Origin: Bryobacteraceae bacterium
GTDB lineage: Bacteria > Acidobacteriota > Terriglobia > Bryobacterales > Bryobacteraceae
DNA: 24,000 nt
Reading direction: 5' to 3'
NCBI GenBank assembly: GCA_046160045.1
Contig: JBJXGR010000413.1
Span: 8,959 to 32,958 of the forward strand
Numbering within the stretch: the first letter of the stretch is position 1; each line of letters begins with the position of its first letter. Below, piece after piece: positions 7,693 through 21,534 of this stretch. The position numbers and the translations under genes were made by a program. The notes under the pieces are model-generated. The model searched no databases. It saw only the letters and a program-made list of their open reading frames with translations, and had not been told where the DNA came from.

Positions 7693-8580
7693 CTAGACGC
7701 CGGTCTTCGTGAGGAACTCGCGGACGCCCGGAGCAAGCGTGGAGGCCACTTGCAGGTTGGCCATACCCTTCATGTCGGAAATGACGTACGCGAGGAAACT
7801 GCCCGCGTCAAATGCTGCGACCTGGTAGCGATCGGCGCCCGACTGGTAGATAGGAATGCCGGAGGGGCCGGCGGCCGGGGAGAGCTGGTCGAACGTCTCG
7901 CCGTCTTGTTTGCGGGCGATCACCAGCGACAGCAGCTTGTCGCCGTTTGCCAGCGTCAGATGCACGTATTGGCGTTTGGCGAAGGCGCACTGATGCGCCA
8001 GGACGATCCGGTAGCCTTCCGGAACCGCGGTTCGCACCACCGGCAGCAACCCCTGGTACGACGGTCCGAGCTCGCGTTCCATCTTCTCCACGCTGGGCGG
8101 GTTCTTCGAGTATTTGCGAAACACGGCGCAGTGGATATGGTCGCGCAGTCCTACTCGCAGGACGGCAGCAAACCGCGCCGAGACCTTCTCGATGTAGGTA
8201 TTCTGAGCCGGGCGATTGGCGAGTTCCGGCATCGGCTCGGGCCTGCCGCTGACCCACACCGCGGCAAAGAGGGCGAGGCTCGCGGCGGCGGCCAGGGACC
8301 ATCGCGCCCAGATCGCGCCGAACGGCTTGCGCGACTCTGCAGCCCCGATTCGGCGGCGAATGAGCACGGGAAGCTCAACGGGCGCCGGCTGGTTCCGCAC
8401 GACGGCTTTCAGGCGCGCGCGAAGCTGGACTCGCGCGTCGGCCTCGGCCGCGCATCCGGCGCAGCTCTCGAGGTGACGCAGCACCTCGTGGTTCGTCTCG
8501 ATGGTGAGCTCGTTGCTGATGTAGGAGTCGAGATACTTGCGGGTCCGCTCGCAGATCTCTCCAAATGAAACCCGATTCAT
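7693..8580 (-). CDS. Anti-sigma factor, zf-HC2 type, single TM, about 170-aa extracytoplasmic domain of unknown family
   Basis: N-terminal H-x3-C-x2-C motif (HLESCAGC). One hydrophobic span (WSLAAAASLALFAAVWV). The start overlaps the sigma gene stop (ATGA at 8577-8580). Paralogous to 22676-23497. Confidence 0.85.
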   Translation of the reverse strand: MNRVSFGEICERTRKYLDSYISNELTIETNHEVLRHLESCAGCAAEADARVQLRARLKAVVRNQPAPVELPVLIRRRIGAAESRKPFGAIWARWSLAAAASLALFAAVWVSGRPEPMPELANRPAQNTYIEKVSARFAAVLRVGLRDHIHCAVFRKYSKNPPSVEKMERELGPSYQGLLPVVRTAVPEGYRIVLAHQCAFAKRQYVHLTLANGDKLLSLVIARKQDGETFDQLSPAAGPSGIPIYQSGADRYQVAAFDAGSFLAYVISDMKGMANLQVASTLAPGVREFLTKTGV

Positions 8581-9134
8581 GCGCTCTTTCCTTCCCCTTT
8601 TGCCCGGCCGATTCCATATGATTGCGCGACGCCGGCCAACCGCTCACGGAGCTGCCTGCGGCCCCGGCTTAGCCTGGACATGATAGTCCCGATCGGCACG
8701 CTCAGAATTCCAGCCGCTTCCTTGTATGAAAACTCTTCGACATCGATGAGAAGCACGACGGCCCGGTAGTCATGTGTAACGTCGGCCAATGCCGCCAACA
8801 TCTCTTCATCGGTAATGTTCTCCGGGATCGACAGGCCTGGCGACACGGCCTGGTCGAGAATCACTTCGGGCTCGTTGATCATCCGGACGTTCCGCCATTT
8901 CCGGCGGTAGTGATGGAGCGTGTGGAACAGGATCGTAAAGAGCCACGCGCGGCAGTTGGTCCCCGGCTCGAATCGCCCGAAGGACTTCCAAGCCTGCAGG
9001 TAGACTTCCTGGACCACGTCGTCCGCTCCCACTCCCGTGCCCAGAAGGCGTGCCGCCGTGCGGTAGATGTCGTTCAAAAACGGCAGGGCGGCGGCTTCGA
9101 ACTCATCCGTTCGCGGCCGGTGCGAGAAGAGCAT
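8577..9134 (-). CDS. ECF (sigma-70 family, group IV) RNA polymerase sigma factor, copy 1
   Basis: Region 2 (VVQEVYLQAWKSFGRFEPGTNCRAWLFTILFH) and region 4 (EEFSYKEAAGILSVPIGTIMSRLSRGRRQLRERL) signatures. Translationally coupled to the anti-sigma gene. Confidence 0.9.
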   Translation of the reverse strand: MLFSHRPRTDEFEAAALPFLNDIYRTAARLLGTGVGADDVVQEVYLQAWKSFGRFEPGTNCRAWLFTILFHTLHHYRRKWRNVRMINEPEVILDQAVSPGLSIPENITDEEMLAALADVTHDYRAVVLLIDVEEFSYKEAAGILSVPIGTIMSRLSRGRRQLRERLAGVAQSYGIGRAKGEGKSA

Positions 9135-9142
9135 CCTACCCC

Positions 9143-9172
9143 CTTCATCCAGCTATTCAGCCAGTTTATTCC
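9143..9172 (-). promoter_or_regulatory. Type-1 bipartite promoter-like motif upstream of sigma copy 1
   Basis: The minus strand reads GGAATAAA-ctggctgaatagct-GGATGAAG, then 8 nt, then ATG (9134). Confidence 0.55.
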
Positions 9173-9228
9173 CCGCCAGTGAAAAATTTCTGCAAGATCA
9201 GAGGATGCTAGCGACCACCCACGCAGAA

Positions 9229-9354
9229 TCAACTACTTACACGCCGACCTTGGCAAGCATCATTGTGTTTTTGATCCTTATTGACCGGGTCGGCGGGCAA
9301 TCCGGCGAACGCCGGGGTCACTCCCAACAGGAGAACAAACCGTCTGGTCCGCAT
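9229..9354 (-). CDS. Hypothetical 41-aa peptide with a signal-peptide-like (Tat-like TRRFVL) N-terminus
   Basis: Translation MRTRRFVLLLGVTPAFAGLPADPVNKDQKHNDACQGRRVSS*. The ATG lies 5 nt after a type-1 motif, the same geometry as four other starts. It is below the ORF-track size cut-off, and GC3 drops in its second half. Confidence 0.35.
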   Translation of the reverse strand: MRTRRFVLLLGVTPAFAGLPADPVNKDQKHNDACQGRRVSS

Positions 9355-9359
9355 GTCCT

Positions 9360-9389
9360 CTCAATCCAACTGGCAAGGGCTGTTATTCC
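9360..9389 (-). promoter_or_regulatory. Type-1 bipartite motif upstream of the 41-aa ORF
   Basis: The minus strand reads GGAATAAC-agcccttgccagtt-GGATTGAG, then 5 nt, then ATG (9354). Confidence 0.5.
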
Positions 9390-9401
9390 CGGAACGCCGC
9401 G

Positions 9402-9431
9402 GGAATAACCACCGGGCTGCCCCGGATGAAG
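9402..9431 (+). promoter_or_regulatory. Type-1 bipartite motif upstream of the SDR-led operon
   Basis: The plus strand reads GGAATAAC-caccgggctgcccc-GGATGAAG, then 18 nt containing the SD AAGGAG, then ATG (9450). Confidence 0.55.
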
Positions 9432-9449
9432 CAGGTGCAAGGAGCAACG

Positions 9450-10253
9450 ATGGAACGATTAAAAGGAAAGAACGTGCTGATCACCGGCGCGTCGTCCGGC
9501 ATCGGGCAGGCGATCGCGATCCGGTTTGCGCGAGAAGGTGCGAACGTCGCCATTAATTATCGGAGCGGCGCCGAACAGGCAGAAGCCACCCAGGTGCTCG
9601 CCAAGGCCGCACGCACCAATGGCCACGGGCGGGAGATCCTCGTGCAGGCCGACGTCTCGAGCGAAGAGCAGGTCAAGAACATGATTGCCAAGACGATCGA
9701 AGCGTTCGGCCGCCTCGACGTCCTCATAAACAACGCCGGAATTCAGAAACCGGCGCCCAGCCACGAGATCGAGACCGCGGACTTCGACCGCATCATCTCG
9801 GTCAACTTGCGCGGGCCGTTCCTCTGTTCGCGCGAGGCCATCCGGCACTTTCTTTCGCGGCCGGGCGGCGGCGTCATCCTCAACAATTCGAGCGTCCACG
9901 AGATCATTCCGAAACCGAAGTACCTCTCGTATTCCGTGAGCAAGGGCGGGATGGAGAACCTGACCAAGTCGCTGGCGCTCGAATACGCCGGCCAGGGCAT
10001 CCGGGTGAACGCCGTCGGACCGGGCGCCGTCGTGACGCCAATCAACAAGGCCTGGACCGATAGCCCGAAGGCGCGAGGCGAGGTCGAAAGTCACATTCCG
10101 ATGGGTCACGCAGCGGAAGCCGACGAGATCGCGTCGGTGTTCGCGTTCCTGGCATCGGACGAAGCGTCGTACGTGACCGGGCAGACGATCTTCGCCTGTG
10201 GCGGCCTGACGCTGTATCCCGAGTTCCGCGTGGCCTGGTCATCGGGAGAGTAA
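9450..10253 (+). CDS. SDR-family oxidoreductase, glucose 1-dehydrogenase-like
   Basis: ATG at 9450 with AGGAG SD. TGASSGIG cofactor motif, NNAG, and the catalytic S...YxxSK (YSVSKGG). Overall resemblance to Bacillus-type glucose 1-dehydrogenases. Confidence 0.9.
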   Translation: MERLKGKNVLITGASSGIGQAIAIRFAREGANVAINYRSGAEQAEATQVLAKAARTNGHGREILVQADVSSEEQVKNMIAKTIEAFGRLDVLINNAGIQKPAPSHEIETADFDRIISVNLRGPFLCSREAIRHFLSRPGGGVILNNSSVHEIIPKPKYLSYSVSKGGMENLTKSLALEYAGQGIRVNAVGPGAVVTPINKAWTDSPKARGEVESHIPMGHAAEADEIASVFAFLASDEASYVTGQTIFACGGLTLYPEFRVAWSSGE

Positions 10254-10263
10254 GGGGAACATC

Positions 10264-10941
10264 ATGAGTTCACTCGAAGGAAAAACGGTTATCGTCACTG
10301 GCGCCAAAGGTGGCCTGGGCAGTTTCGTCACCGAGGCCTTTCTCGCGGCCGGCGCCCGAGTGGTAGGCGTATCGCGATCGATCCAGGCAAGCGACTTCCC
10401 TCACCCGGAGTTCGTCGCCTTGCCGGCCGAGTTGTCGAGCGGCGACGCTGCTCGTAAGGTCGCGGCGGAAGTCTCCGGACGGTTCGGGCGCATCGACGCT
10501 CTTGCTCACGTTATGGGCGGATTCGCCGGTGGGCAGAGCGTCGCGGAGACCGACGACGCGACGTTGGAAAAGATGCTCGACCTCAACTACCGGGCCGCGT
10601 TCTACATGGCTCGCGCCGTCCTACCCCAGATGCGGGCACAAGGCGGAGGCCGCATCGTGGCGGTCGCGAGCCGGCAGGCGGCGGAACCGGCCGCCATGAC
10701 CGGCGCATACAGCGCGTCCAAGGCGGCGCTGGTTGCGCTGATCCGAACAATCGCGCTCGAGAATAAGGATCGCTGCATCTCCGCGAACGCGGTGCTGCCG
10801 GGCACGATGGACACGCCGGGCAACCCCGGACCGCAATTCGTTCAACCGGCGCAGGTGGCGGCGATGCTCGTGCACCTGGCCTCCGACGCCGCGGCGCAAG
10901 TCACGGGCGCGGCGATTCCGATCTACGGAAACCAGGTGTGA
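10264..10941 (+). CDS. SDR-family oxidoreductase (short, 225 aa)
   Basis: TGAKGGLG glycine motif and YSASKAA catalytic motif. RBS AAGGGGA lies upstream. Confidence 0.85.
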   Translation: MSSLEGKTVIVTGAKGGLGSFVTEAFLAAGARVVGVSRSIQASDFPHPEFVALPAELSSGDAARKVAAEVSGRFGRIDALAHVMGGFAGGQSVAETDDATLEKMLDLNYRAAFYMARAVLPQMRAQGGGRIVAVASRQAAEPAAMTGAYSASKAALVALIRTIALENKDRCISANAVLPGTMDTPGNPGPQFVQPAQVAAMLVHLASDAAAQVTGAAIPIYGNQV

Positions 10942-10942
10942 C

Positions 10943-11137
10943 ATGACGGTCGCGCTGTGGCTGGCTGGCATTTACGCAGGGATTGGCCTTGTGTTCGCAG
11001 TGGTGTTCGTCGCGGTCGGGATCGGCCGGGTCGATCCCAACGCGCGGAAGGCGCCGCTCGGGTTCCGCCTGATCGTTCTGCCCGGCTGTGCGGCGCTCTG
11101 GCCGCTGATGGCGGGGCGATGGATGAGGGCGCGATGA
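10943..11137 (+). CDS. Small membrane protein (64 aa, two hydrophobic spans)
   Basis: It starts 1 nt after the SDR stop. Translation MTVALWLAGIYAGIGLVFAVVFVAVGIG...LIVLPGCAALWPLMAG. No recognised family. Confidence 0.55.
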   Translation: MTVALWLAGIYAGIGLVFAVVFVAVGIGRVDPNARKAPLGFRLIVLPGCAALWPLMAGRWMRAR

Positions 11138-11277
11138 CGCGACCCCTGCGGCGCGCTCACTTCCGGATCTGGATCGTATTGGCCTTGCTGCTATACGCCA
11201 TATTGACGGCAGGCATCCTGGCCCGGCGAAGCACGATGCCGGTGAATCCGAACCTGAATTGGGAGCAGTATCGATGA
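11134..11277 (+). CDS. Small membrane protein (47 aa, one hydrophobic span)
   Basis: ATGA overlaps at both ends (11134-11137 and 11274-11277). Translation MTRPLRRAHFRIWIVLALLLYAILTAGILARR... Confidence 0.45.
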   Translation: MTRPLRRAHFRIWIVLALLLYAILTAGILARRSTMPVNPNLNWEQYR

Positions 11278-12299
11278 GCCTCGGCTACCAGGCGGTCGGT
11301 TGGAACCGCACGAAGAAAATCTACGACAGCCTCATCGTGAGCGGACTGGCGGTGTACCTCGCGCTGTTCGTGGGCATCGGAGCAGCCGTTCATCCGCACG
11401 CGACGGCGGAGACGCTGCTGATCCGCGGACTGGGCACTGCGGCGCTTCTGCTGCTGCACGTGATTCTCGCGATCGGTCCGCTGTGCCGCCTCGACCGGCG
11501 CTTCCTGCCGATGTTGTACAACCGCCGGCACCTGGGCGTCACGATGTTCCTTCTTGCCCTCGCGCATGGGGTCTTCTCGATCTTCCAGTTCCATGCGCTG
11601 GGCGACGTGAACCCGCTGGTCAGTGTGTTCGTCAGCAACACCCGGTACGGCAGCCTTGCCGATTTTCCGTTCCAGGCGCTCGGATTCTTTGCGCTTACGA
11701 TCCTGTTCCTGATGGCAGCCACCAGCCACGACTTCTGGCTGGCCAACCTGACCGCCCCGGCGTGGAAGCGACTTCACATGCTGGTGTACGTCGCCTATGG
11801 CCTTTTGATCGCGCACGTGGTGCTGGGCGCGCTCCAGTCGGAAACGAGCCGGGCGCTCCCGGTAATCCTCGGCCTGGGCATTACCGTCCTGGCCACGCTA
11901 CATCTGGCGGCGGCGGCGAAGGAGCGCCGGAAGGACAGCACCGGTCCGGGATACATGCCTGCCTGCGATCTCGACCGCATCCCCGAGAATCGCGCCTGCG
12001 TGGTTTCGTGCGGCGGCGAGCGGGTCGCGGTGTTCAAGTATGGCGGCAAGGTGTCAGCAGTTTCGAACGTCTGCCGGCATCAGAACGGCCCACTGGGCGA
12101 AGGCAAGATTATCGACGGCTGTATCACCTGTCCCTGGCACGGCTATCAGTACCTGCCTGATACGGGGGCCTCGCCGCCGCCATTCACGGAGAAGGTCTCG
12201 ACCTACCGCACGAAGATCGTGGGCCGGCAGGTGTTGGTCGATCCGATGCCGCTCCCGCCGGGAACGCGCGTCACCCCATCGGAGATCCCACATGTCTGA
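11274..12299 (+). CDS. Ferric-reductase-like transmembrane domain fused to a C-terminal Rieske [2Fe-2S] domain
   Basis: Multi-TM N-terminus with two H-x12-H pairs (HLGVTMFLLALAH, HMLVYVAYGLLIAH), typical of di-heme FRD/MsrQ-like domains. The C-terminus carries CRH...CPWH (the Rieske CxH-x17-CxxH). Confidence 0.85.
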   Translation: MSLGYQAVGWNRTKKIYDSLIVSGLAVYLALFVGIGAAVHPHATAETLLIRGLGTAALLLLHVILAIGPLCRLDRRFLPMLYNRRHLGVTMFLLALAHGVFSIFQFHALGDVNPLVSVFVSNTRYGSLADFPFQALGFFALTILFLMAATSHDFWLANLTAPAWKRLHMLVYVAYGLLIAHVVLGALQSETSRALPVILGLGITVLATLHLAAAAKERRKDSTGPGYMPACDLDRIPENRACVVSCGGERVAVFKYGGKVSAVSNVCRHQNGPLGEGKIIDGCITCPWHGYQYLPDTGASPPPFTEKVSTYRTKIVGRQVLVDPMPLPPGTRVTPSEIPHV

Positions 12300-12960
12300 G
12301 TTCTACATTGGCTACTCGCCCATTCCGGCGGGCCTGCGAACGTTCGTACGGCGCGTTGTCGCGGTCCTCGGAGTGATTGCCGCCGGAGCGGCGATCGCGC
12401 TCGTCCTGGAGCAGGACCCTTTTGCTCCGAGCGTGTTCGAGTTTCACGAATATCGCGAGTTCGAGGGCGTGCTGATTACGAAACCGTATCCCGCGCTCGT
12501 TGCCGCGGACGGGCTTCCGTGGCTGCTCGCCGGACCGGGCAAGCACGGATTCGCACCGCCCTCCGAACTCCGGGGCCAGGTCGTGCGATTGCGCGGGGAG
12601 CGAATCTACCGCGGACCGGACCGCATGATCGCGGTTCAAGGGGTGACCGCCGTGAGGCCGAGCGAACCCCCGCCGGAGGTCGACCTCGGTCCGGTGGAGC
12701 TCACCGGCGAGATCGTGGACAGCAAGTGCTACTTCGGCGTGATGAACCCCGGCAATGGTAAAGTCCATCGCGACTGTGCGGTCCGGTGTCTGAGCGGCGG
12801 CATTCCGCCCGCGCTGATTGTGCGCGACGCAGCCGGCGCGGGGCGAACGGTGCTGCTGGCGAATTGGCGGCGCGAGCTGCTGGACCGGGTGGCCGAGCCG
12901 GTGACCATTCGCGGCCGCCTGGCCCGATCCGCCGGCCGATTGATTCTCTACGCGGAATAA
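12292..12960 (+). CDS. N-terminally anchored protein of unknown function with a C-x14-HRDC-x3-C motif
   Basis: 8-nt overlap with the upstream gene. One TM (VVAVLGVIAAGAAIALVL). Contains DSKCYFGVMNPGNGKVHRDCAVRCLSGGIPP. Confidence 0.7.
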   Translation: MSEFYIGYSPIPAGLRTFVRRVVAVLGVIAAGAAIALVLEQDPFAPSVFEFHEYREFEGVLITKPYPALVAADGLPWLLAGPGKHGFAPPSELRGQVVRLRGERIYRGPDRMIAVQGVTAVRPSEPPPEVDLGPVELTGEIVDSKCYFGVMNPGNGKVHRDCAVRCLSGGIPPALIVRDAAGAGRTVLLANWRRELLDRVAEPVTIRGRLARSAGRLILYAE

Positions 12961-12983
12961 ATGCGACGCGCCCGCGGATTTCG
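12954..12983 (+). promoter_or_regulatory. Type-1 bipartite motif upstream of the OlsF-like gene
   Basis: The plus strand reads GGAATAAA-tgcgacgcgcccgc-GGATTTCG, then 6 nt, then ATG (12990). The -35-like box overlaps the TAA stop (12958-12960) of the upstream gene. Confidence 0.55.
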
Positions 12984-12989
12984 AGAGTG

Positions 12990-14762
12990 ATGGCTACCGC
13001 GGTTTTTGACTCCGTCATTCCCCGGATCGTCCCCTTCCCGCTGCCGCGCGCGATCCGCGATCTTCTCTCCCGCGCTCTCGGTTTCGACGAACTTGCGCGC
13101 GTGTACGACGCGCTGCAGTCGGCGGGAGACCGGCCGATCACCGACCGCCTGCTGGGAGTCCTTTCCGTCCGCTGCGCGGTCTCGGATGCCGATATCGAGC
13201 GCATCCCACGTGCAGGCGCGGCGATCGTCACGGCGAACCACCCGTTTGGCATCCTCGAGGGCGCGGCGCTCGCGGCCCTGCTCGGCCGGGTGCGGTCCGA
13301 TGTTCGCATCCTCGCGAACGGAATCCTGACCGCCATTCCGGAGTTGCGCGACCTCGTGATCCCGGTGGATCCGATGTCCGGGCCACAAGCCGCAGGCGGC
13401 AACGGCCACGGTCTGCGGCGCGCGCTCGAGCATCTCGGCGCAGGCGGCATGCTGGTCATTTTTCCGGCCGGCGAGGTCTCGCACTTCTGCTGGCGGGAGC
13501 GCGGTGTGAGCGACCCGGGCTGGAACCCGGCCGTCGCCCGGCTGGTGAACATCGCGGCGAGGCGAGGCGTTCGTGTACCGGTGCTGCCGGCTTTTGTCGA
13601 TGGCGCCAACGGAGCTCTGTTTCAGGCCGCCGGCATGGTGCATCCGCGACTGCGTACGGCGCTGCTCGGCCGCGAGTTGCTCAACAAACGCGGGCGGCGC
13701 GTGGAGGTGCGGATCGGGACGCCGGTCGAGTCCGACAGGCTTCTCGCGATTCCAAGCCCACGCGAACAGGTCGACTATCTCCGCTGGCGCACGTACCTGC
13801 TGGCGCGCCGCGAGCGCTTCAAGCCGTTAACGTCGCGGCCATTGGACCGCCCGGACGATGCTCAACGCGAGGCTGTTGCAGGGCCGATCCCACCAGAGGC
13901 ACTCGCCCGCGAGATTGGCGGGTTGCCCGCCGACCACCTCCTGAACCGCTCCGGCGATCTGGAGGTCTATCTCGCGAACGCCGCCGCGATTCCGCAGACG
14001 CTGCTCGAACTCGGCCGGCTGCGTGAGATCACGTTCCGCGCCGCTGGCGAAGGAACCGGCAAGCGGCTCGACCTGGACCGCTTCGACGAGCACTACCTTC
14101 ACCTATTCGTCTGGAACGCGCGCCGGCAGGAAGTCGTCGGCGCCTACCGCCTGGTGGGCACGGACACCGCCGGCACGCGGGGACTCTACACCGCGACGCT
14201 CTTTCGTTACCGCCCGGAGTTTCTGGACCGTCTCGGGCCGGCGGTCGAACTGGGCCGCTCGTTCATTCGCGCCGAGTACCAGAAAGGGTTCGCGCCGCTG
14301 CTCCTGTTGTGGAAGGGAATCGGCGCGTTCCTCGTGCGCAACCCGCGGTACACGGTCCTGTTCGGACCGGTCAGCATCAGCAACCAGTACGCCGCCGTCT
14401 CGCGAGAGCTGATGGTCGGGTTCCTCGAGAAGTATGCGATGCTGCGCGGCTGGGCCGGCTTGGTGCGCGGCCGCAATCCGTTCCGCCGCCGGCTACCGGA
14501 CGACGGCTTGCCGAGCGCGGGCTTCGACGTCGAAGACCTCTCCACGATTCTCGGTGATGTGGAGCAGAACGTTGCGGGCGTTCCGGTCCTGTTGCGGCAA
14601 TACCTGCGGCTCGGCGGCAAGCTGCTTGGCTTTAATGTCGACGCCAAGTTTGCGAACGCGCTCGACGGGCTGATCCTCGTCGACCTCACTAAGACGGAGC
14701 CGAAGCTGATCGAGCGGTATCTCGGCAAGGAGTATTTGAAAGGACAACATGGAACACACTAG
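12990..14762 (+). CDS. olsF: Bifunctional aminolipid synthase, OlsF-like: PlsC-type O-acyltransferase (N-terminal) plus OlsB/GlsB-like GNAT N-acyltransferase (C-terminal)
   Basis: The N-terminal half has the acyltransferase motifs NHPFGILEG (HX4-acidic) and VIFPAGEVS. The C-terminal half has LGRLREITFRAAGEGTGKRLDLDRFDEHYLHLFVWN..VVGAYRL, typical of the OlsB-type N-acyltransferase family. The 590-aa length fits OlsF. The amino-acid head group cannot be read from the sequence. Confidence 0.8.
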   Translation: MATAVFDSVIPRIVPFPLPRAIRDLLSRALGFDELARVYDALQSAGDRPITDRLLGVLSVRCAVSDADIERIPRAGAAIVTANHPFGILEGAALAALLGRVRSDVRILANGILTAIPELRDLVIPVDPMSGPQAAGGNGHGLRRALEHLGAGGMLVIFPAGEVSHFCWRERGVSDPGWNPAVARLVNIAARRGVRVPVLPAFVDGANGALFQAAGMVHPRLRTALLGRELLNKRGRRVEVRIGTPVESDRLLAIPSPREQVDYLRWRTYLLARRERFKPLTSRPLDRPDDAQREAVAGPIPPEALAREIGGLPADHLLNRSGDLEVYLANAAAIPQTLLELGRLREITFRAAGEGTGKRLDLDRFDEHYLHLFVWNARRQEVVGAYRLVGTDTAGTRGLYTATLFRYRPEFLDRLGPAVELGRSFIRAEYQKGFAPLLLLWKGIGAFLVRNPRYTVLFGPVSISNQYAAVSRELMVGFLEKYAMLRGWAGLVRGRNPFRRRLPDDGLPSAGFDVEDLSTILGDVEQNVAGVPVLLRQYLRLGGKLLGFNVDAKFANALDGLILVDLTKTEPKLIERYLGKEYLKGQHGTH

Positions 14763-15159
14763 AGCATTTGTTTGGACGAGCTGGGGGCTGCGGCTGATCG
14801 TCGCGGTCATTCTGCTGCAAACCCTTTTCTTCAAGTTCACCGGGGCCCGGGAATCGGTCTACATCTTCTCGACGCTCGGGATGGAACCATGGGGGCGAAT
14901 TGGATCGGGCGTCTTCGAGTTGATCGCGTCCGCGTTACTGCTGATCCCGTCGACCGTGCCGTTCGGCGCCGCGATGGCGCTGGCCGCCACAGGCAGCGCG
15001 ATTGTCTTCCATCTGACCAGGCTCGGAGTCGCGCTGGCAGCCGTCGGCGACCGCGGCGAGCTATTCGCCCTCGCCGTGCTGGTCGTTTTGTGCTCGGCAG
15101 CCCTGCTCTTGATGTACCGCCGGGAACTGCCGTTCGTCGCTTCCCACAAACTCACCTGA
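14749..15159 (+). CDS. DoxX-family membrane protein
   Basis: 14-nt overlap with the upstream gene. Four hydrophobic spans and a DoxX-like N-terminus (WGLRLIVAVILLQTLFFKFTG...). Confidence 0.75.
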   Translation: MEHTRAFVWTSWGLRLIVAVILLQTLFFKFTGARESVYIFSTLGMEPWGRIGSGVFELIASALLLIPSTVPFGAAMALAATGSAIVFHLTRLGVALAAVGDRGELFALAVLVVLCSAALLLMYRRELPFVASHKLT

Positions 15160-15166
15160 TGGCTAT

Positions 15167-15200
15167 GGCGATCGGCGGGCTCTGGAACTCGCCGATCGCC
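15167..15200. terminator. 11-bp perfect GC-rich hairpin between convergent operons
   Basis: GGCGATCGGCG (15167-15177) pairs with CGCCGATCGCC (15190-15200) around a 12-nt loop, 8 nt after the DoxX stop. No U-tract, so terminator function is uncertain. Confidence 0.4.
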
Positions 15201-15363
15201 AACACAGCCGGCACTCGATCCCCGACCACCGTCCCTGCCGGAATCGGCGCGTTGATCTGCGTCACCCAACCGTTCCCGGAGCTGGACCAATGAACGGCGA
15301 CCGGGTCGAACGGGAAGGCGACGGGTATGCCCGGCATCGTCGGTTGCGAGCCCCTCCCATTAG

Positions 15364-16923
15364 TTAGCCCGTCGCGACATCGGCTGTCCGCCGGCAAGGA
15401 GGATCTGCCGGTCGGCTCGGTCGTAGACGATGATCATGCCTGTTTATGCGACCGGGCCGTTGTGTTCTTCCCGGGGCGCGGACGACCTGCACGAACTGGC
15501 GGAGCGTCATGGGCCGCGCGCCGGCAGCACGGTTCGCGCTGCCGATCTCGAAGGCGATGCGCCAAAGGCGGAACATTACGCGGTAGGCTTCGAGCAGGCT
15601 GACGGCAGGGTCGTAGATATGGGTCGCCTCGGCCGATACGCCATTCAGCTCGAGCACCTGGAAGATGCCGGCCTGGAAGTCGGCGATCGACGGCGTGCGC
15701 AGGTCGAAGCGGCCGAAGTAGAAGCCCGGGTGCGACTGCGCGACCGCGTCGATGGCGGCCTCGAGCTCGGGCGTGCAATAGGACGAGCCGTCCAGAAAGA
15801 TGGCGCCCCGGCAGTGCGAGCCGAGCTCGACAAGACGCACACGTTCGCCGGGGAAGAGGATGCGGTCTGGCTGCCTGGCGAGGTAGATGTGCGCCAGGCA
15901 AACGGCACGATCATCTCGAAGGACCAGGTCGGACAGCTTGCTCACGCCGTCGCCAACCACCTCGGGAAAGCGCTTCTCGGTGATGGAGCAGATGCGACCG
16001 GACCGCTCGCCGGGATAACGGTAGTAGAAGACCCCGAATTCAAGGCCTCCCACATAGCGCTGCACGATCGTGGCGATGCGGGCGGCGGCGAGGTATGCGT
16101 TGACCTCCTCCCGCGAGCGTGCGATGACCACGCCTGTCCCGCGCTCACCGACGTCGGGCTTGAGCACGACCGGGAACTCGGAGACTTCGAGCGTCTCGCC
16201 AGCCCGGACGAGCTGGAAATCGGGAACACGCGGCAAGTGGGAGAGGATCGAGGACTTCGATTCGCCGACAAACCCGCCCGACGGAATGCCGGGGTTCGCC
16301 GCCGTGAACAGCGTCAACGATCGATGCCTCCAACCGAGATATAGGAGGTACGGAACAATTGGCAGATAGGCGAGCCATGGCGGCCAGAACTCCCAGCGCG
16401 CCCTGCGGCGAAACCAACCGATAATTCGTTGGCGAGTCTGCCACCGCAGCCGGGCGATCTGCCAGCCGGCCACTGCGACGGCGACCGCGAGAGGCGCCCC
16501 CGGGATGCCGCGGCCAAGCACAGCCGCGCTGCCGACCAGGAGCGGTGTCCACACGAGGGCCGCGGCCAGGAAGTACAGATTGAACGTCCAAAAGCGCGTG
16601 TGCAGCATCCCGGCGGCGAGGTACGTGGGCAGTCGCAGACCGGGAGTAAACCGGCTGAGGAGCACGACCGCTGCGCCACGCTCAGCCATCCAGCGCGCTG
16701 CGCTAGCGATCTTACTCTCCGGCACGAGCCGGCGGATGATCGGCCGACCTGCGAGGCGGCCCGTGAAGTAGAGCAACAGGTCGCCGAAGTAGATCCCCGC
16801 AGCGCAGGCGAGAACACCCTCAACGAGGCCGAGGTGCCCGCCCGCGACAAGTGCGCCCGTGGCGATGCATGTCAGGTCTTCGCTCACGAAGGTCGCGAGC
16901 GCAATGGCGATGAGTTGTCCCAT
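15364..16923 (-). CDS. Fusion protein: DedA/VTT membrane domain (N-terminal) plus ATP-grasp ligase domain (C-terminal)
   Basis: The N-terminus is DedA-like (FVSEDLTCIATGALVAGG...YFGDLLLYFTGRLAGRP...LLSRFTPGLRLPTYLAAG). Extra TMs follow, then ATP-grasp-like segments (VVLKPDVGERGTGV, IVQRYVGGLEFGVFYYR, FGRFDLR, VLELNGVSAEATHIYDP). The last roughly 40 aa are low-complexity. Confidence 0.8.
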   Translation of the reverse strand: MGQLIAIALATFVSEDLTCIATGALVAGGHLGLVEGVLACAAGIYFGDLLLYFTGRLAGRPIIRRLVPESKIASAARWMAERGAAVVLLSRFTPGLRLPTYLAAGMLHTRFWTFNLYFLAAALVWTPLLVGSAAVLGRGIPGAPLAVAVAVAGWQIARLRWQTRQRIIGWFRRRARWEFWPPWLAYLPIVPYLLYLGWRHRSLTLFTAANPGIPSGGFVGESKSSILSHLPRVPDFQLVRAGETLEVSEFPVVLKPDVGERGTGVVIARSREEVNAYLAAARIATIVQRYVGGLEFGVFYYRYPGERSGRICSITEKRFPEVVGDGVSKLSDLVLRDDRAVCLAHIYLARQPDRILFPGERVRLVELGSHCRGAIFLDGSSYCTPELEAAIDAVAQSHPGFYFGRFDLRTPSIADFQAGIFQVLELNGVSAEATHIYDPAVSLLEAYRVMFRLWRIAFEIGSANRAAGARPMTLRQFVQVVRAPGRTQRPGRINRHDHRLRPSRPADPPCRRTADVATG

Positions 16924-16933
16924 GGGGTCTCCG

Positions 16934-17596
16934 TTACGCGGCTCGGGCGCAGGGTGCAGTGGGCAAGTAATGGAAGCGAATCTCGCCGTTCCGAACGATC
17001 ACCTCGCTGAAGCTCACTGTCTCGGCGTCGGACCGGTGCATGCAGGGCGCGTGCGCGCCCGACGATCCGGTGTGGCTCGCGTGAAACCTGTATAGCGACG
17101 CGGGGTCGACAGGTTTGAGTCGAGCGAACTCCAGTAGGCGCTCCCGGCGGACGCCGTCAGGGTCGTAGGACGAGGACGTCAGCGGCGCTCGCGCGTCGAG
17201 GTCGACGGCAAGTTGGGCGCCGTCCCATATTCCGACCGTTGCCGGCCCGCCCGGTTCGAGCATCAGAAGGACAAACGGAGCGAAGGGGCTCAGGTCCGAG
17301 TGTCGAAGCAGAAAGACGCAATCGTCGATCGAGCGGATCCAGATGAGTTCGGGGATAAGCAGACCACGGCTGCGCTGAGCAGGCCGTGAAGAGCCGTTCA
17401 AGAGGCACAGCGATATGCCGTGCTCGTTTACGGCGATCCACGTGCCGCCGAAGTCGGCATCGGTGGGGGCCAGGTATTTCACGCCGGCCCCCTCGAAGAC
17501 GCGTGGCGGGTGTGCGATCCCTCGCGTCCTCTTCTCATCGCGATTGCACAGAAGATGATAGCCGCCGGTTTGATGGAGCCAGCTCACCGTGCACAT
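16934..17596 (-). CDS. NRDE-family (TANGO2-like, Ntn-hydrolase-like) protein
   Basis: It starts with MCT (N-terminal Cys after Met) and carries the LCNRDE signature. An RBS GGAG lies in the 10-nt spacer before the downstream gene. Confidence 0.85.
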   Translation of the reverse strand: MCTVSWLHQTGGYHLLCNRDEKRTRGIAHPPRVFEGAGVKYLAPTDADFGGTWIAVNEHGISLCLLNGSSRPAQRSRGLLIPELIWIRSIDDCVFLLRHSDLSPFAPFVLLMLEPGGPATVGIWDGAQLAVDLDARAPLTSSSYDPDGVRRERLLEFARLKPVDPASLYRFHASHTGSSGAHAPCMHRSDAETVSFSEVIVRNGEIRFHYLPTAPCARAA

Positions 17597-18133
17597 TTAC
17601 GCAGCCTCCGCGGCGCTCGCCGCCAGATAACGCAGGGTGGAAGGCGCCATCCCAAAGTCGGGGTCAATGTCGACTCCGTGCAGTCGCAGCGTCATCGCAA
17701 TCAACGCGAAATGATGGATGGTATGGCTGCTGAGGACCTGCAGTTCACGACTGATCGATGACTCCATAAACGGCTCGTGAACCAGGCCCGCCGCCGCGTC
17801 CTCCATCCGAACCCAGACGACGGCTTCGAAACGGACAGCCGTGGACGTTTGCAACTCCCTGATGACGGCGCGAATACAATCCGCCGCGGCGCTACGGGAC
17901 CGCTCGATCTCGAGGTCGCGCCGGCGAGCGTCATAGTCGATATGAAGCGACTCAGCGCCGCACAAGAAGGCCTGATAGAACTCAATGACGTGACGAAGAT
18001 GACCGCCAGCGCGATGGGGCGCCATGCCGGGCGCCGTGGTCGAGTAGGCTGTGTCGTCGAGCTGTTCCAGCAGCCGGAGGGCTTGCCGTAGCCAGCGGAT
18101 GTTGGTGTCGATTAAGGTGTTCAGCCGTTCCAT
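17597..18133 (-). CDS. DinB-superfamily (four-helix-bundle, His-triad) protein
   Basis: Helical protein with candidate metal-ligand histidines (HLRHVIEF, SSHTIHHFALI). Its stop TAA abuts the NRDE ATG (TAAATG). Confidence 0.7.
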   Translation of the reverse strand: MERLNTLIDTNIRWLRQALRLLEQLDDTAYSTTAPGMAPHRAGGHLRHVIEFYQAFLCGAESLHIDYDARRRDLEIERSRSAAADCIRAVIRELQTSTAVRFEAVVWVRMEDAAAGLVHEPFMESSISRELQVLSSHTIHHFALIAMTLRLHGVDIDPDFGMAPSTLRYLAASAAEAA

Positions 18134-18140
18134 ACTGCTG

Positions 18141-18170
18141 GAACATCCCTCCCGGCGGCCGATTTATTCC
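18141..18170 (-). promoter_or_regulatory. Type-1 bipartite motif upstream of the DinB-NRDE-DedA::ATP-grasp operon
   Basis: The minus strand reads GGAATAAA-tcggccgccgggag-GGATGTTC, then 7 nt, then ATG (18133). Confidence 0.55.
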
Positions 18171-18172: not shown

Positions 18173-18202
18173 GGAATATTTCCGCGGCGACGCGTCCTCT
18201 AA
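18173..18202 (+). promoter_or_regulatory. Type-2 bipartite motif upstream of the aquaporin operon
   Basis: The plus strand reads GGAATATT-tccgcggcgacgcg-TCCTCTAA, then 5 nt, then GTG (18208). Confidence 0.4.
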
Positions 18203-18207: not shown

Positions 18208-19002
18208 GTGCAGGCAACTGGCGTCGCAATCGCAAAACCCCATGCAGCGGCCGAAGCGCTCCGCGGCCACTGGCCGGAGTACCTGATGGAGGCCGCCGCG
18301 CTCGGAGCCTTCATGGTCTCGGCGTGCGCCTTCGGCATCCTTTTGCAGCGTGCGCCCGTTGGCGACTTCACTCGACGGCTGGCCGGCGGAATCGCCATGG
18401 GGCTGACGGCTGTGGCAATCATCTGTTCGCCTTGGGGACAACGGTCCGGCGCCCATATGAACCCGGCGCTGACGCTCGCATTCGCCACAATTGGCAAGAT
18501 CGCGCCCTGGGACGCGGTCTTCTACATGGCGGCGCAGTTTCTGGGCGGGACCGCCGGAGTCGTCCTGGCGCGGCTGCTCTTCGGCCCGGCCGTCGCGAAC
18601 GTGAACTATGTCGCAACTCTGCCGGGTCCGCAAGGTCAGTGGACCGCATTCGCCGCGGAGTTCGCCATCTCCTTTCTGCTCGTCGCGACGGTCCTACGCG
18701 TGGCGAACTCGCGACGATGGACGCGTGCGACCCCTTGGGTTGCCGGGTTCCTGGTCGCGGCGTTCATCACAATTGAGTCGCCGCTCTCGGGAATGAGCAT
18801 GAATCCGGCGCGCACGTTCGCGTCCGCGCTGCCGGCGGGCGTGTGGACGAGCTTCTGGGTCTATCTGACCGCGCCTCCGCTGGCGATGGTCACCGCGGCG
18901 CAGCTGTACCGGCGGCGTGTCTTCTGCGTCAAGTATCACCACCACAATCGCCAGCGGTGTATTTTCCGCTGTAACTACGGAGCACTTCAGAATGAGCAAT
19001 GA
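18208..19002 (+). CDS. MIP-family channel (aquaporin/glycerol-facilitator-like) with a Cys/His-rich C-terminal tail
   Basis: Two NPA boxes (HMNPALT, SMNPART) and six hydrophobic spans. The tail reads VFCVKYHHHNRQRCIFRCNYG. The start is uncertain: GTG at 18208, or ATG at 18286, which has a GGAG 6 nt upstream. Confidence 0.85.
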   Translation: MQATGVAIAKPHAAAEALRGHWPEYLMEAAALGAFMVSACAFGILLQRAPVGDFTRRLAGGIAMGLTAVAIICSPWGQRSGAHMNPALTLAFATIGKIAPWDAVFYMAAQFLGGTAGVVLARLLFGPAVANVNYVATLPGPQGQWTAFAAEFAISFLLVATVLRVANSRRWTRATPWVAGFLVAAFITIESPLSGMSMNPARTFASALPAGVWTSFWVYLTAPPLAMVTAAQLYRRRVFCVKYHHHNRQRCIFRCNYGALQNEQ

Positions 19003-20563
19003 CCGGCACTACGACGTGATCATCATCGGCACCGGGGCGGGCGGCGGCACACTCGCGCGCAAGCTCGCCCCTACAGGCAAGCGCGTGCTTCTTCTCGAGC
19101 GCGGCGACTACGTCCCGCGCGAGAAGGACAACTGGAGCACGCGCGCCGTCAACGTGGAAGGCAAGTACCAGACCCGGGAGGTCTGGCGCGACCGCGACGG
19201 CAAGCCGCTGCACCCGCACACGAATTACTGCGTCGGCGGTAACACTAAGTTCTACGGCGCGGCGCTGTTTCGACTGCGAGGGCGGGACTTCTGCGCCGTC
19301 CGCCATCACGGCGGCATCTCACCCGCCTGGCCTATCTCGTACGACGAACTGGAGCCTTACTACACAGAGGCCGAACGCCACTATCACGTGCACGGCGAGC
19401 GCGGCGAGGACCCGACCGATCCGGCGGCGAGCGCGCCGTACCCGCACCCCGCAGTCAGCCATGAGCCGCGCATCCAGCAATTGGCGGACGACTTCGCCGC
19501 CGCAGGCCTTCGGCCCTTCCACACGCCCCTGGGAGTGCAACTGGATGAGCGAAACCCGCGGGCCAGCAAGTGCATCCGGTGCAATACTTGCGACGGTTTT
19601 CCGTGCTTGGTGTATGCCAAGTCGGACGCCCAGGTGCTCGGGGTGGATCCGGCGCTCGAATACCTGAACGTCGGCCTCATGACGAACGCGTACGTGGAGC
19701 GCCTTGAGACCAGCGAGTCGGGCCGCGAGATCACGGGTGTCATCGTGCGGCAGAACGAAGCTATCGCTACATACACCGCGGACATCGTGGTGGTCGCGTG
19801 CGGCGCGATCAACTCGGCGGCGCTATTGCTGCGGTCGGCGAACGACCGGCATCCGCGCGGTCTGGCCAATGGATCGGATACGGTCGGGCGGCACTATATG
19901 GGGCACGTCAATTCGGTCCTGATGGCAATTTCGAAGTGCCCCAACCCGGTGATCTTCCAGAAGACGCTTTCGATAAACGACTTCTATTTCGGCACGGACG
20001 AGTGGGAGTACCCGATGGGGCACATCTCGTTCGTCGGCAAGCTGGACGGGGTTACGCTGAGCGCTGGCGCGCCGGCCATCGCACCGGGGTTCACTCTCGA
20101 CATGATGGCGAATCATTCGCTCGATTTCTGGCTCACGTCGGAGGACCTGCCCGACCCCGACAATCGCGTGACGCTCGACCGCGAGGGTAACATCGTCCTG
20201 AACTACCGGCCCAACAACGAAGAAGGGCACACGCGCCTCGCGGCGAAGTTGAAAGCGCTGATGCAGCGGCAAACGCGATGCTCGGTGCACGGGCACGATT
20301 GCCATCAGGGACTGTTTGCGCGCAGTCTGTTCGTCGGGCAGCGGATTCCGCTGGCGGGCGTCGCGCATCAGAACGGCACCATCCGCTTCGGCGCCAATCC
20401 GACGGCATCGGCGCTCGACCGCAACTGTAAGGCGCACGAGGTGGACAACCTGTACGTGGTGGACGGGAGCTTCTTCCCGTCGAGCGGCGCGGTCAATCCT
20501 GCATTGACGATCATGGCGAACGCGCTACGGGTTGGTGATCACCTCATCGGGAGGATGTCATGA
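18992..20563 (+). CDS. GMC-family FAD-dependent oxidoreductase
   Basis: The ATG at 18992 overlaps the aquaporin stop by 11 nt. FAD fold motif YDVIIIGTGAGGGTLA. C-terminal GMC signature (NLYVVDGSFFPSSGAVNPALTIMA). An internal Cys cluster reads KCIRCNTCDGFPC. Confidence 0.9.
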   Translation: MSNDRHYDVIIIGTGAGGGTLARKLAPTGKRVLLLERGDYVPREKDNWSTRAVNVEGKYQTREVWRDRDGKPLHPHTNYCVGGNTKFYGAALFRLRGRDFCAVRHHGGISPAWPISYDELEPYYTEAERHYHVHGERGEDPTDPAASAPYPHPAVSHEPRIQQLADDFAAAGLRPFHTPLGVQLDERNPRASKCIRCNTCDGFPCLVYAKSDAQVLGVDPALEYLNVGLMTNAYVERLETSESGREITGVIVRQNEAIATYTADIVVVACGAINSAALLLRSANDRHPRGLANGSDTVGRHYMGHVNSVLMAISKCPNPVIFQKTLSINDFYFGTDEWEYPMGHISFVGKLDGVTLSAGAPAIAPGFTLDMMANHSLDFWLTSEDLPDPDNRVTLDREGNIVLNYRPNNEEGHTRLAAKLKALMQRQTRCSVHGHDCHQGLFARSLFVGQRIPLAGVAHQNGTIRFGANPTASALDRNCKAHEVDNLYVVDGSFFPSSGAVNPALTIMANALRVGDHLIGRMS

Positions 20564-21534
20564 CGCGGCGACTATTCGTCCTTCTACTTGCCGCCAGCAC
20601 GCTGCTGTTCGGCGGCGACCGTCCTGGGATCGTCAGCGCAGTGGACTCGATCGGACTCACCGTCTCGGACCTCGACCGCTCGGTGGAGTTCTACTCCAAG
20701 GTCCTTCACTTCGAGAAGGTCACCGAAATCGAGGTGGAAGGCGACGCCTACGAGCACCTGCAAGGCGTTTTCGGGCTGCGGATGCGAATCGCCCGCATGA
20801 AGCTCGAAGACGAATCGATCGAGCTGACGGAGTATCTCGCGCCACGGGGCCGCCCTGCCCCGGTGGACGCGCGGAGCAACGATCGCTGGTTCCAGCACAT
20901 CGCCATCATCGTCAGCGACATGGATCGCGCCTACCGGTGGCTGCGCGAGCACAAGGTGGAGCACGCGTCATCGGGTCCACAACTTCTGCCTGCCTGGAAT
21001 CCGAATGCCGGCGGCATCCGCGCGTTCTACTTCCGCGACCCGGACGGGCATCCGCTGGAGGTCCTGTGGTTCCCGTCCGGCAAGGGCAAGGCGAAGTGGC
21101 ACAAAACCGATCGCCTGTTTCTCGGAATAGATCACACCGCGATCGTCATATCCGACACAGAGGCCAGCTTGCGGTTCTATCGCGACCGCCTGGGCATGGA
21201 AGTGGCCGGCGAGAGCGAGAACTACGGGCCCGAGCAGGAGCGCCTCAACAACGTCTTCGGCGCCCGCCTGCGCATCACAGCGCTGCGGGCGGCGTCGGGG
21301 CCGGGAGTGGAGTTCCTCGAATACCTGGCCCCGCGCGACGGGCGTCCCTATCCGCCGGACGCGCGGGCGAACGACCTGATTCACTGGCAGACCCGGTTCG
21401 TCGGGAACAGCGCCGGGGACGCCGCGAAGGTACTGCGGAATCGAGCCGTCGAACTGGACGGCAAGGCGGGGTTTCGGAAAGCAGTTACGGTCCGCGACCC
21501 GGATGGACACGCCATCCAGATCGTGGAGCCATAG
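20560..21534 (+). CDS. Secreted tandem VOC (glyoxalase/bleomycin-resistance/dioxygenase) family protein
   Basis: ATGA overlap with the GMC gene. N-terminal signal-like MTRRLFVLLLAASTLLFGG. Two VOC-like repeats each end in RDPDGH..E (FYFRDPDGHPLEV, VTVRDPDGHAIQIV). Confidence 0.85.
   Translation: MTRRLFVLLLAASTLLFGGDRPGIVSAVDSIGLTVSDLDRSVEFYSKVLHFEKVTEIEVEGDAYEHLQGVFGLRMRIARMKLEDESIELTEYLAPRGRPAPVDARSNDRWFQHIAIIVSDMDRAYRWLREHKVEHASSGPQLLPAWNPNAGGIRAFYFRDPDGHPLEVLWFPSGKGKAKWHKTDRLFLGIDHTAIVISDTEASLRFYRDRLGMEVAGESENYGPEQERLNNVFGARLRITALRAASGPGVEFLEYLAPRDGRPYPPDARANDLIHWQTRFVGNSAGDAAKVLRNRAVELDGKAGFRKAVTVRDPDGHAIQIVEP

Follow-up and report, generated by a model that had tools for sequence, protein, structure and literature searches.

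This report concerns a 24,000-nucleotide stretch of DNA from a Bryobacteraceae bacterium (Acidobacteriota; GenBank assembly GCA_046160045.1, contig JBJXGR010000413.1, positions 8,959 to 32,958), here called the window, in which five copies of a bipartite motif, GGAATAA followed at a fixed distance by GGAT, stand upstream of genes and operons. We conclude that these five sites are very probably promoters read by a SigH-like extracytoplasmic function (ECF) sigma factor encoded in the window itself, the most likely reader being sigma-1, which has one of the sites in front of its own gene. An earlier note on this DNA had taken the sites as the signature of an ECF stress regulon, and its interpretation is supported in every part that comparative analysis can test.

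The five putative promoters, with the distance from the T of GGAT to the start codon and the extended -10 box, are:

9147..9172, minus strand: autoregulatory promoter of sigma-1, GGAATAAA-N14-GGAT (-35 box at 9172-9166, GGAT at 9150-9147); 12 nt to the ATG at 9134; GGATGAAG
9364..9389, minus strand: promoter of a truncated YHS gene, GGAATAAC-N14-GGAT; 9 nt to the ATG at 9354; GGATTGAG
9402..9427, plus strand: promoter of the SDR operon, GGAATAAC-N14-GGAT; 22 nt to the ATG at 9450, across a conserved leader with an AAGGAG Shine-Dalgarno sequence; GGATGAAG
12954..12979, plus strand: OlsF-DoxX promoter, GGAATAAA-N14-GGAT; 10 nt to the ATG at 12990; GGATTTCG
18145..18170, minus strand: promoter of the DinB-TANGO2-DedA::ATP-grasp operon, GGAATAAA-N14-GGAT; 11 nt to the ATG at 18133; GGATGTTC

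An exhaustive search of both strands for GGAATAA-N15-GGAT (the strict motif) returned precisely these five matches, where the earlier note had placed them, and none in any of 100 dinucleotide-preserving shuffles; such a scan, with a shuffled control, was what the note had proposed. Its count by eye of seven GGAATAA copies was reproduced as well, against 0.74 expected, and no shuffle reached seven. The distances to the ATG that it had read from the end of its own 8-nt box (8, 5, 18, 6 and 7 nt) agree with the sequence, as does the orientation of each site toward the adjacent gene. The flanks and spacers of the five copies are unrelated to one another. A sigma-70 consensus scan of positions 7000-19000 found no site, and hence no alternative promoter was detected there.

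Two pairs of sigma and anti-sigma genes lie in the window:

8577..9134, minus strand: sigma-1, a SigH-like ECF sigma factor of 185 aa (Pfam Sigma70_r2 and Sigma70_r4_2)
7693..8580, minus strand: anti-sigma-1, 295 aa, with an N-terminal zinc-binding anti-sigma (ZAS) domain (zf-HC2), one hydrophobic helix and a conserved C-terminal domain
22074..23497, plus strand: the paralogous pair of sigma-2 (22074-22679, 201 aa) and anti-sigma-2 (273 aa, ZAS)

Judged by sequence, sigma-1 is an ECF (group 4) sigma factor with a co-transcribed anti-sigma and its own upstream motif: Pfam finds only Sigma70_r2 and Sigma70_r4_2 in it, and its gene runs into the zf-HC2 gene, with stop and start overlapping at 8577-8580. 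This layout is repeated in sigma-2. The two sigmas are 56% identical, with the specificity-loop sequence GTNCRAWL in common, and the two anti-sigmas are 35% identical. For both sigmas the best NCBIfam match is TIGR02947 (SigH_actino), at sub-threshold scores of 136.2 bits for sigma-1 and 148.5 bits for sigma-2. The best PDB match of sigma-1 is Mycobacterium tuberculosis SigH (5zx2_F, E=6e-29, 104 bits), followed by SigE at 70 bits; its likeness to RpoE is distant (42 bits).

The published SigH/SigR promoter consensus is (G/T)GGAATA-N16-19-(C/T)GTTGAA, or alternatively GGAATA-N17-GTT. In the same notation, the window motif reads gGGAATA-N16-GGAT(G/T)..., which is GGAATA-N17-GAT, and all five sites have this form. 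The sites thus combine the GGAAT(A) -35 box and 16-19-nt spacing of SigH/SigR promoters with a -10 core that is GAT at five of five, not GTT. The resemblance to SigR-type promoters drawn in the earlier note is therefore sound for the -35 box, the spacing and the best family match of the sigma, but not for the -10 element. SigD-type promoters do have a GAT -10 element, and a natural GGAAC...GAT hybrid promoter exists; on sequence, the window sites resemble an H-type -35 box combined with a D-type -10 element. There is a concrete rationale for the change. In the open complex of M. tuberculosis SigH, the -10 element is G-11 T-10 T-9, with T-9 held by F72, T76, N77 and W81 and T-10 read by N88, a residue that the authors of the structure flag as a likely specificity determinant and that is His in SigC and SigD. 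In a HMMER alignment sigma-1 keeps the F, T, N and W of SigH (FEPGTNCRAWL) and has His at the position of N88 (ILFH), which would account for GAT in place of GTT.

The mechanism that we propose follows known ECF systems. GGAATA would be the -35 box, bound by sigma domain 4, and the GGAT 17 nt downstream would contain GAT, the -10 trinucleotide recognised by sigma domain 2. The site in front of sigma-1 would drive both sigma-1 and its membrane-anchored ZAS anti-sigma, giving positive autoregulation, and the other four GGAT sites would drive the truncated YHS gene, the SDR/Ferric-reductase::Rieske operon, OlsF-DoxX and DinB-TANGO2-DedA::ATP-grasp. Sigma-2 and anti-sigma-2 would use the same -35 box with a different -10 element, TCCT, found at the sigma-2 promoter itself and at a MIP-GMC-VOC operon. 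The inducing signal would probably be envelope, thiol-oxidative or electrophile stress. Transcription itself, the pairing of each sigma with its sites, the start sites, the signal and the release of sigma from anti-sigma are what we infer from the comparisons.

Three sets of related DNA were compared with the window: 80 loci around sigma-1 relatives in species-representative genomes (1.36 Mb in total), 80 metagenomic loci around sigma-2 relatives, and further contigs comprising same-species (Logan) contigs and a syntenic locus, L165, from a genome that encodes a sigma-1 with 76% identity. The window sigma-1 itself matches a protein of a 'Bryobacteraceae bacterium' metagenome-assembled genome at 100% identity. 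The controls were a composition-matched reversed pattern and first-order Markov simulations. The 80 genome loci contain 42 copies of the strict motif, where the reversed pattern gives 0 and the Markov simulations average 0.30; for a relaxed motif, GGAATA-N17-[GC]AT, the corresponding figures are 163, 3 and 8.9. The fixed spacing noticed among the five window copies proves to be a sharp optimum in these loci too: the relaxed boxes are found 20, 28, 163, 28 and 10 times with spacers of N15, N16, N17, N18 and N19. The matches in the 80 loci are concentrated before a few gene families: sigma-2-like (32), DinB (17), sigma-1-like (16), MIP (15), SDR (7), OlsF (5) and DoxX (3).

The positions of the motif are also those of promoters. 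When it was sought within 130 nt upstream of gene starts, it was present before the orthologous operon heads of MIP (18/20), DinB (15/20) and OlsF (5/6), and nearly absent before genes internal to operons (FRD::Rieske 0/12, DedA::ATP-grasp 0/21, TANGO2 1/20, GMC 1/16), a distribution that counts for the promoter reading; it was also absent upstream of the GH63 (0/14) and GDE (0/4) orthologues. Sigma-1 orthologues have GGAATA(T/A)T-N14-GGAT or -GCAT upstream, and the motif precedes most of the 84 + 80 sigma paralogues and orthologues examined, which bears out the autoregulatory site that the earlier note had seen in front of sigma-1. DinB orthologues have GGAT in 14 of 16 cases. Elsewhere in the relatives the motif stands before AhpC/TSA redoxins, DUF1223, an outer membrane protein beta-barrel, an NDH-2-like oxidoreductase, YceI and HbpS::cupin.

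Phylogenetic footprinting, also suggested in the note, gave the pattern of a conserved pair of boxes with a diverging spacer. The logo of 93 unique ortholog-linked sites is c(G/C)GGAATAA(A/T)-N14-g(G/C)AT(T)(T), with a GC-rich, uninformative spacer. The OlsF promoters of the window, L003, L001 and L165 have the boxes and the start codon in common and diverged spacers; in the L165 copy both boxes are retained and the spacer is shorter by 1 nt. The sigma-1, SDR, DinB and MIP promoters of L165 repeat the same boxes and spacing, and the SDR promoters of L001, L003 and L165 have the GGATGAAGCAGGTG / GGATCAAACAGGCG leaders in common. In principle the five sites could be chance matches, and a conserved coding sequence at 21124 (described below) does mimic the relaxed pattern; alternatively, they could be copies of a dispersed repeat or mobile element. 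Given the empty shuffles and reversed control, the unrelated flanks and spacers and the conservation of orthologous positions across genera, we regard either origin as hardly conceivable.

The note's list of sites was accurate for the five GGAT copies, but its GGAT criterion overlooked two sites of the same family. Both read GGAATA(A/T)(A/T)-N14-TCCT, with the same -35 box as the GGAT class, and are putative promoters of a second class:

18173..18198, plus strand: MIP-GMC-VOC promoter, GGAATATT-N14-TCCT; conserved GTG at 18208, 9 nt past the T
22037..22062, plus strand: sigma-2 autoregulatory promoter, GGAATAAA-N14-TCCT; ATG at 22074, 11 nt past the T

In the sigma-2 clade the gap between -10 element and ATG is fixed at 11 nt. 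The MIP -35 box abuts that of DinB (TTATTCC-AT-GGAATA, 2 bp apart), and the same divergent arrangement, offset by 3 nt, recurs in L084, L086, L087, L095, L111 and L165. At the divergent pairs DinB/MIP and YHS-remnant/SDR, two holoenzymes would need to share upstream DNA.

Inverted TTATTCC...GGAATAA arrangements occur at two loci, 9383-9408 (12 bp apart) and 18164-18178 (2 bp apart), and could be seen as palindromic half-sites in the operator of a dimeric transcription factor. The separation of the half-sites varies, and the sigma-1, OlsF and sigma-2 sites are single and non-palindromic. Moreover, the second box lies on one side only, at a fixed 17 nt and with a start codon about 10 nt further on, and it co-varies with residues of the sigma factors. 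An operator is thus very unlikely; pairs of divergent promoters, their -35 boxes back to back, explain the inverted repeats. The roughly fixed distance from the second box to the start codon also raises the question of whether the motif acts in RNA, as an element of the 5′ untranslated region (UTR) or of translation, with the GGA of GGAT acting like a Shine-Dalgarno sequence 9-12 nt upstream of the ATG. This scenario is highly improbable: the SDR site and many sigma-1 orthologue sites are 22-37 nt from the start codon and have a Shine-Dalgarno sequence of their own, the TCCT class contains no Shine-Dalgarno-like sequence at all, and the spacers are unconserved, with no compensatory pattern. 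A search of the whole window with Rfam at the gathering threshold matched no family at the motif sites.

The promoter reading leaves the question of which sigma reads which sites. We compared the -10 element with the recognition helix in 139 unique pairs of a sigma and its own promoter, a set of non-independent pairs counted without correction for phylogeny. Sigmas with His at the residue equivalent to SigH N88 have promoters in which the central -10 base is A 76 times and T 6 times; for sigmas with Asn at this residue the counts are 3 for A and 7 for T. The latter sigmas form a clade, with promoters of the form GGAATAAA-N14-[C/T]CTTATG. A second split lies within the sigma-2 clade, at a residue four positions further along the helix that is either Asn or Ser. 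Sigma-2 proteins with Asn (FHCVNH) have GCAT, TCAT or GGAT, with xxAT in 53 of 58 promoters; those with Ser (FHCVSH), which include sigma-2 of the window, have TCCT, CCTT or TCTT, non-AT in 37 of 43 unique promoters and AT in 6 (Fisher 6e-16, uncorrected for phylogeny). Seven loci combine a Ser-type sigma-2 with the DinB/MIP pair (L084, L086, L087, L095, L107, L111 and the window). The MIP promoter is TCCT or TCTT in all seven, and the DinB promoter is GGAT wherever it is present. In Asn-type loci, the MIP -10 element is TCAT, ACAT or CGAT.

The MIP -10 element therefore tracks sigma-2 and the DinB element does not, which argues that the motif is read directly by these sigmas and that the window holds two regulons with a common -35 box. 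The co-variation suggests that the GGAT class of five sites is most simply assigned to sigma-1, and the TCCT class (sigma-2 and MIP-GMC-VOC) to sigma-2. That all five GGAT sites are targets of sigma-1, as the earlier note had supposed, is likely on this evidence, but its picture of one stress regulon had not taken in the second, paralogous sigma with a second -10 class at the same locus.

Some observations weigh against this interpretation. Both sigmas score below the TIGR02947 cut-off of 251.55 bits, and anti-sigma-1 scores 30.9 bits against the RsrA model TIGR03988, below its cut-off of 62.5. The extended SigH -10 feature of S at -5 (G or C 4 nt past the T) is found at 5/5 window sites; however, it is not enriched in the 93 ortholog-linked sites (59% vs 61% background), and it was dropped as evidence for a SigH-type promoter. 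The co-variation has exceptions (L015, L016, L042, L057, L104, L109 and L110), and its counts are phylogenetically non-independent. Finally, relatives show synteny of the DinB operon with sigma-2 and not with sigma-1, and every local promoter in Asn-type genomes is xxAT; the -10 class is thus the sole basis for assigning DinB to sigma-1.

The last point makes cross-recognition a serious rival, and cross-talk between sigma-1 and sigma-2 is the one live alternative. The two sigmas may not be insulated from each other: sigma-2, or both, would read the GGAT sites, especially that of DinB, and the difference between GGAT and TCCT would set promoter strength. The 56% identity of the two proteins, their identical GTNCRAWL loop, the linkage of DinB to sigma-2 in most relatives and the uniform xxAT of the sigma-2, MIP and DinB promoters in Asn-type genomes are all compatible with this possibility, and overlapping SigH and SigE regulons are documented in Corynebacterium glutamicum. 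It is hard to explain by one sigma with one specificity, however, that in seven of seven Ser-type loci MIP and sigma-2 switched to TCCT/TCTT and DinB, 3 bp away, stayed GGAT. On balance, non-insulation seems unlikely to us, though far from negligible. The assignment of GGAT sites to sigma-1 and TCCT sites to sigma-2 is kept in what follows.

The predicted transcripts and their genes are:

9450..12960, plus strand: SDR operon, encoding an SDR of 267 aa, an SDR of 225 aa, a 64-aa open reading frame (ORF), a Ferric_reduct::Rieske protein of 341 aa and a 222-aa protein
12990..15159, plus strand: OlsF-like bifunctional acyltransferase of 590 aa and an overlapping DoxX-like gene of 136 aa
15364..18133, minus strand: DinB_2 (178 aa), TANGO2/NRDE (220 aa) and VTT/DedA::ATP-grasp (519 aa), one operon
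18208..21534, plus strand: MIP channel, GMC oxidoreductase and tandem VOC/glyoxalase, the inferred sigma-2 target operon
9229..9354, minus strand: 41-aa ORF, the truncated N-terminus (signal peptide and ADPVNKD) of a YHS-domain protein

Pfam and NCBIfam agree with the earlier note on the ECF sigma, SDR, OlsF-like and DinB_2 genes. The OlsF-like protein scores 389 bits to the OlsF model, under its 620-bit cut-off. The 222-aa protein (about 12292-12960) has no Pfam match; the TAA stop of its gene lies inside the -35 box of the OlsF promoter (12954-12960), and its orthologue in L068 has a motif copy of its own upstream. The synteny of MIP-GMC-VOC with sigma-2 is conserved. Taken together, the annotations (DinB, DoxX, SDRs, VOC, GMC, redoxins and others) suggest a response to envelope, thiol-oxidative or electrophile stress.

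The note's 41-aa ORF, by contrast, is the remnant of a longer gene. It aligns with the signal peptide and ADPxNKD of YHS-domain proteins of about 150 aa (Pfam finds YHS in the L003 orthologue), intact genes for which, with the same motif, are found in L001, L003, L013, L048, L068 and L077; in L001, L003 and L013 the YHS gene is divergent to the SDR operon. In the window the YHS domain itself is missing, as is the DUF1223 gene that is divergent to sigma-1 in L001 and L003, and in L165 the YHS remnant is gone altogether. The ORF has no gene call on Logan contigs of the same sequence. From these alignments it is a decaying gene with a surviving promoter, the region of decay apparently also including 9173-9228.

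Four of the five GGAT sites and both TCCT sites have the T of the -10 element 9-12 nt ahead of the start codon. With the M. tuberculosis SigH open complex as a ruler, in which +1 is 9 nt past the last T of the -10 element, the predicted 5′ UTRs are 4 nt for sigma-1, 1 for YHS, 2 for OlsF, 3 for DinB, 1 for MIP and 3 for sigma-2, and about 14 nt for SDR, with the AAGGAG Shine-Dalgarno sequence inside. Most targets would thus be leaderless or nearly so. Leaderless translation is plausible here, because leaderless genes were predicted in silico in three of three Acidobacteria genomes, at a mean of 13% (Zheng et al.). An in-frame ATG within GGATG (9426) was considered as a leaderless start for SDR and rejected: its counterpart in L001 is not in frame, and it is the Shine-Dalgarno-led ATG at 9450 that is conserved and that gene callers choose. 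For MIP, automatic calls place the start at ATG 18286 (238 aa). Conserved HWPEY lies upstream of this ATG and GTG 18208 is the only in-frame start further up; the gene probably begins at this conserved GTG, leaderless and mis-called by software.

The N-terminal part of anti-sigma-1 has the features of a ZAS domain on sequence, namely H-x3-C-x2-C with an upstream Cys ligand: Pfam zf-HC2 matches at E=3e-7, and C10, H36, C40 and C43 (H36-LES-C40-AG-C43) are invariant in 30 homologues. The JGI label for anti-sigma homologues is 'TIGR02949 family'. Anti-sigma-1 is not small and soluble as RsrA and RshA are; its 295 aa include a hydrophobic helix (residues 91-111) and a further, large domain. Pfam finds no domain over residues 114-295, and this C-terminal part, which is presumably periplasmic, contains six invariant His or Cys residues (H148, H150, C151, H196, C198 and H207). 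An AlphaFold 2 model has a mean predicted local distance difference test (pLDDT) score of 65.8, with residues 160-290 at 80-90, so that confidence is confined to about 130 residues at the C-terminal end. The predicted alpha/beta fold finds its best PDB matches in RseB/MucB (Foldseek E=7e-4, about 1e-3; probability 1.0), at a TM-score of only about 0.24, and superimposes on 3m4w_A over 96 columns at 2.2 A. As a lead only, a fused RseB-like periplasmic sensor would fit a role in sensing lipids or the envelope, and also the membership of OlsF in the regulon.

These elements can be put together in a joint reading, which we offer tentatively and with something short of even confidence. Two SigH-like paralogues at one locus would have a common GGAATA -35 box and be separated solely by the -10 element that each recognises, sigma-1 GGAT and sigma-2 TCCT, through one or two helix residues of sigma domain 2 that contact -11/-10. 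The switch would reside in His versus Asn at the position of SigH N88 and Asn versus Ser four residues later. The targets would have co-evolved, with the divergent DinB and MIP promoters wired to different sigmas, and most mRNAs would be leaderless. A fused periplasmic domain, RseB-like and rich in His and Cys, would let the membrane anti-sigmas sense the state of the envelope, tying OlsF aminolipid synthesis to ECF control.

Two further matches to relaxed forms of the motif were rejected. The first, GGAATAAA-N14-CCAT at 2485-2510 (plus strand), was a candidate sixth target. It lies upstream of a GH63-like gene, at a 60-aa ORF, where it stands between the ATG (2495) and a strong Shine-Dalgarno sequence, AAGGAGG; because none of the 14 GH63 orthologues has the motif, it is probably a chance occurrence. 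The second, GGAATAGA-N14-TCAT at 21124-21149 (plus strand), is intragenic and a false positive. Its sequence, GGAATAGATCACACCGCGATCGTCAT, encodes the conserved GIDHTA of the tandem VOC/glyoxalase protein (20560-21534), and the match recurs in many loci because this coding sequence mimics the relaxed motif, a trap for scans.

Some other features of the window are recorded here. A third GGAATAGC-N14-TCCT site, at 7329-7304 (minus strand), points antisense to the end of GDE. It lies in a region of about 480 nt between GDE and anti-sigma-1 (7208-7692) that is without a convincing ORF and contains a tRNA T-loop-like sequence, GTTCGAATCC; an Rfam search of 7150-7750 at an E-value threshold found nothing meaningful, and no tRNA was found in 7208-7692. 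A tRNA-Asn (GTT) gene lies at 23819-23896 (plus strand) and overlaps a 108-aa ORF (23666-23992), which is therefore spurious. Sigma-2 proteins (22074-22150 in the window; L021-L160) have a conserved N-terminal extension of about 16-27 aa, opening with M-A-x-S-x-x-x-E-x-W-M, that sigma-1 is without; N-terminal extensions modulate the stability of SigR/SigH (ECF classification paper).

Among known systems, the closest is SigH/SigR (ECF12) with RshA/RsrA of Actinobacteria, the best NCBIfam and PDB match of both window sigmas. Both systems have the -35 box GGAATA with 17 nt between it and the -10 trinucleotide, and the four zinc ligands of RsrA have a spacing like that of anti-sigma-1 C10/H36/C40/C43; we take the RsrA ligands to be C11/H37/C41/C44. 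The targets are alike in including a DinB-family protein and, in relatives of the window, AhpC/TSA redoxins and DUF1223, presumably a thioredoxin-like CxxC family, a content in keeping with thiol or oxidative stress. The two systems differ in the -10 element (GTT there, GAT for sigma-1 or TCCT for sigma-2 here), and the window proteins score below the family cut-offs. RsrA is small and soluble, whereas the window anti-sigma is predicted to be membrane-anchored with an extra domain of about 180 aa; in addition, the window host belongs to the Acidobacteriota, there are two paralogous modules per locus, and most targets are predicted to be leaderless.

Other systems resemble the window in single features. 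SigD-type promoters of C. glutamicum and M. tuberculosis (GTAAC-N17-18-GAT) have the GAT -10 element with a different -35 box, and M. tuberculosis SigC and SigD, like sigma-1, have His at the SigH N88 position. The 'H35D10' hybrid Pcg0607 (GGAAC...GAT) joins an H-type -35 box to GAT, as the window sites do, but it is a rare promoter shared by two sigmas, whereas in the window the hybrid would be the cognate consensus of a dedicated sigma at every target. ECF26 sigmas (Sinorhizobium meliloti RpoE1/RpoE4/RpoE6) have a GGAATA(A) -35 box and autoregulation, but their -10 element is GT (cGTCT) rather than GAT, and they are not the best match to sigma-1; their cognate anti-sigmas are presumably of a different type (NrsF/DUF1109-like). 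The single-pass anti-sigma predicted here has counterparts in E. coli sigmaE-RseA-RseB and Pseudomonas aeruginosa AlgU-MucA-MucB; RseB and MucB are separate proteins there, whereas the RseB-like fold, a low-TM lead, would be fused to the anti-sigma here. The system is thus an ECF regulon of the SigH/SigR type, a known kind, and the regulon itself will not surprise a specialist. The variant features, as read from sequence, are the GAT or TCCT -10 elements, the membrane ZAS anti-sigmas with an extra domain, two modules apparently insulated by their -10 elements, the mostly leaderless targets and the occurrence in Acidobacteriota.

Finally, we consider what the system would mean for its hosts. 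The Bryobacterales (Acidobacteriota) are an abundant, poorly studied soil lineage, for which the motif provides a testable regulon and promoter code. In this code, two stress sigmas would control OlsF aminolipid synthesis, DoxX, the DinB/TANGO2/DedA operon, redox enzymes and a channel of the aquaporin type; should the partition between sigma-1 and sigma-2 be wrong, an ordinary ECF regulon remains. Genes with such promoters probably have no 5′ UTR, which affects the calling of start codons, MIP being an example. The natural series from GTT (actinobacterial SigH) through GAT and CAT to CCT/CTT tracks defined residue changes and is thus a data set on the rewiring of ECF -10 recognition. It also bears on the insulation of duplicated sigmas, which to our knowledge has so far been addressed mainly by engineering. 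What most deserves following up in this system, we suggest, is the co-variation of sigma and promoter, together with the putative control of aminolipid synthesis by an ECF sigma.

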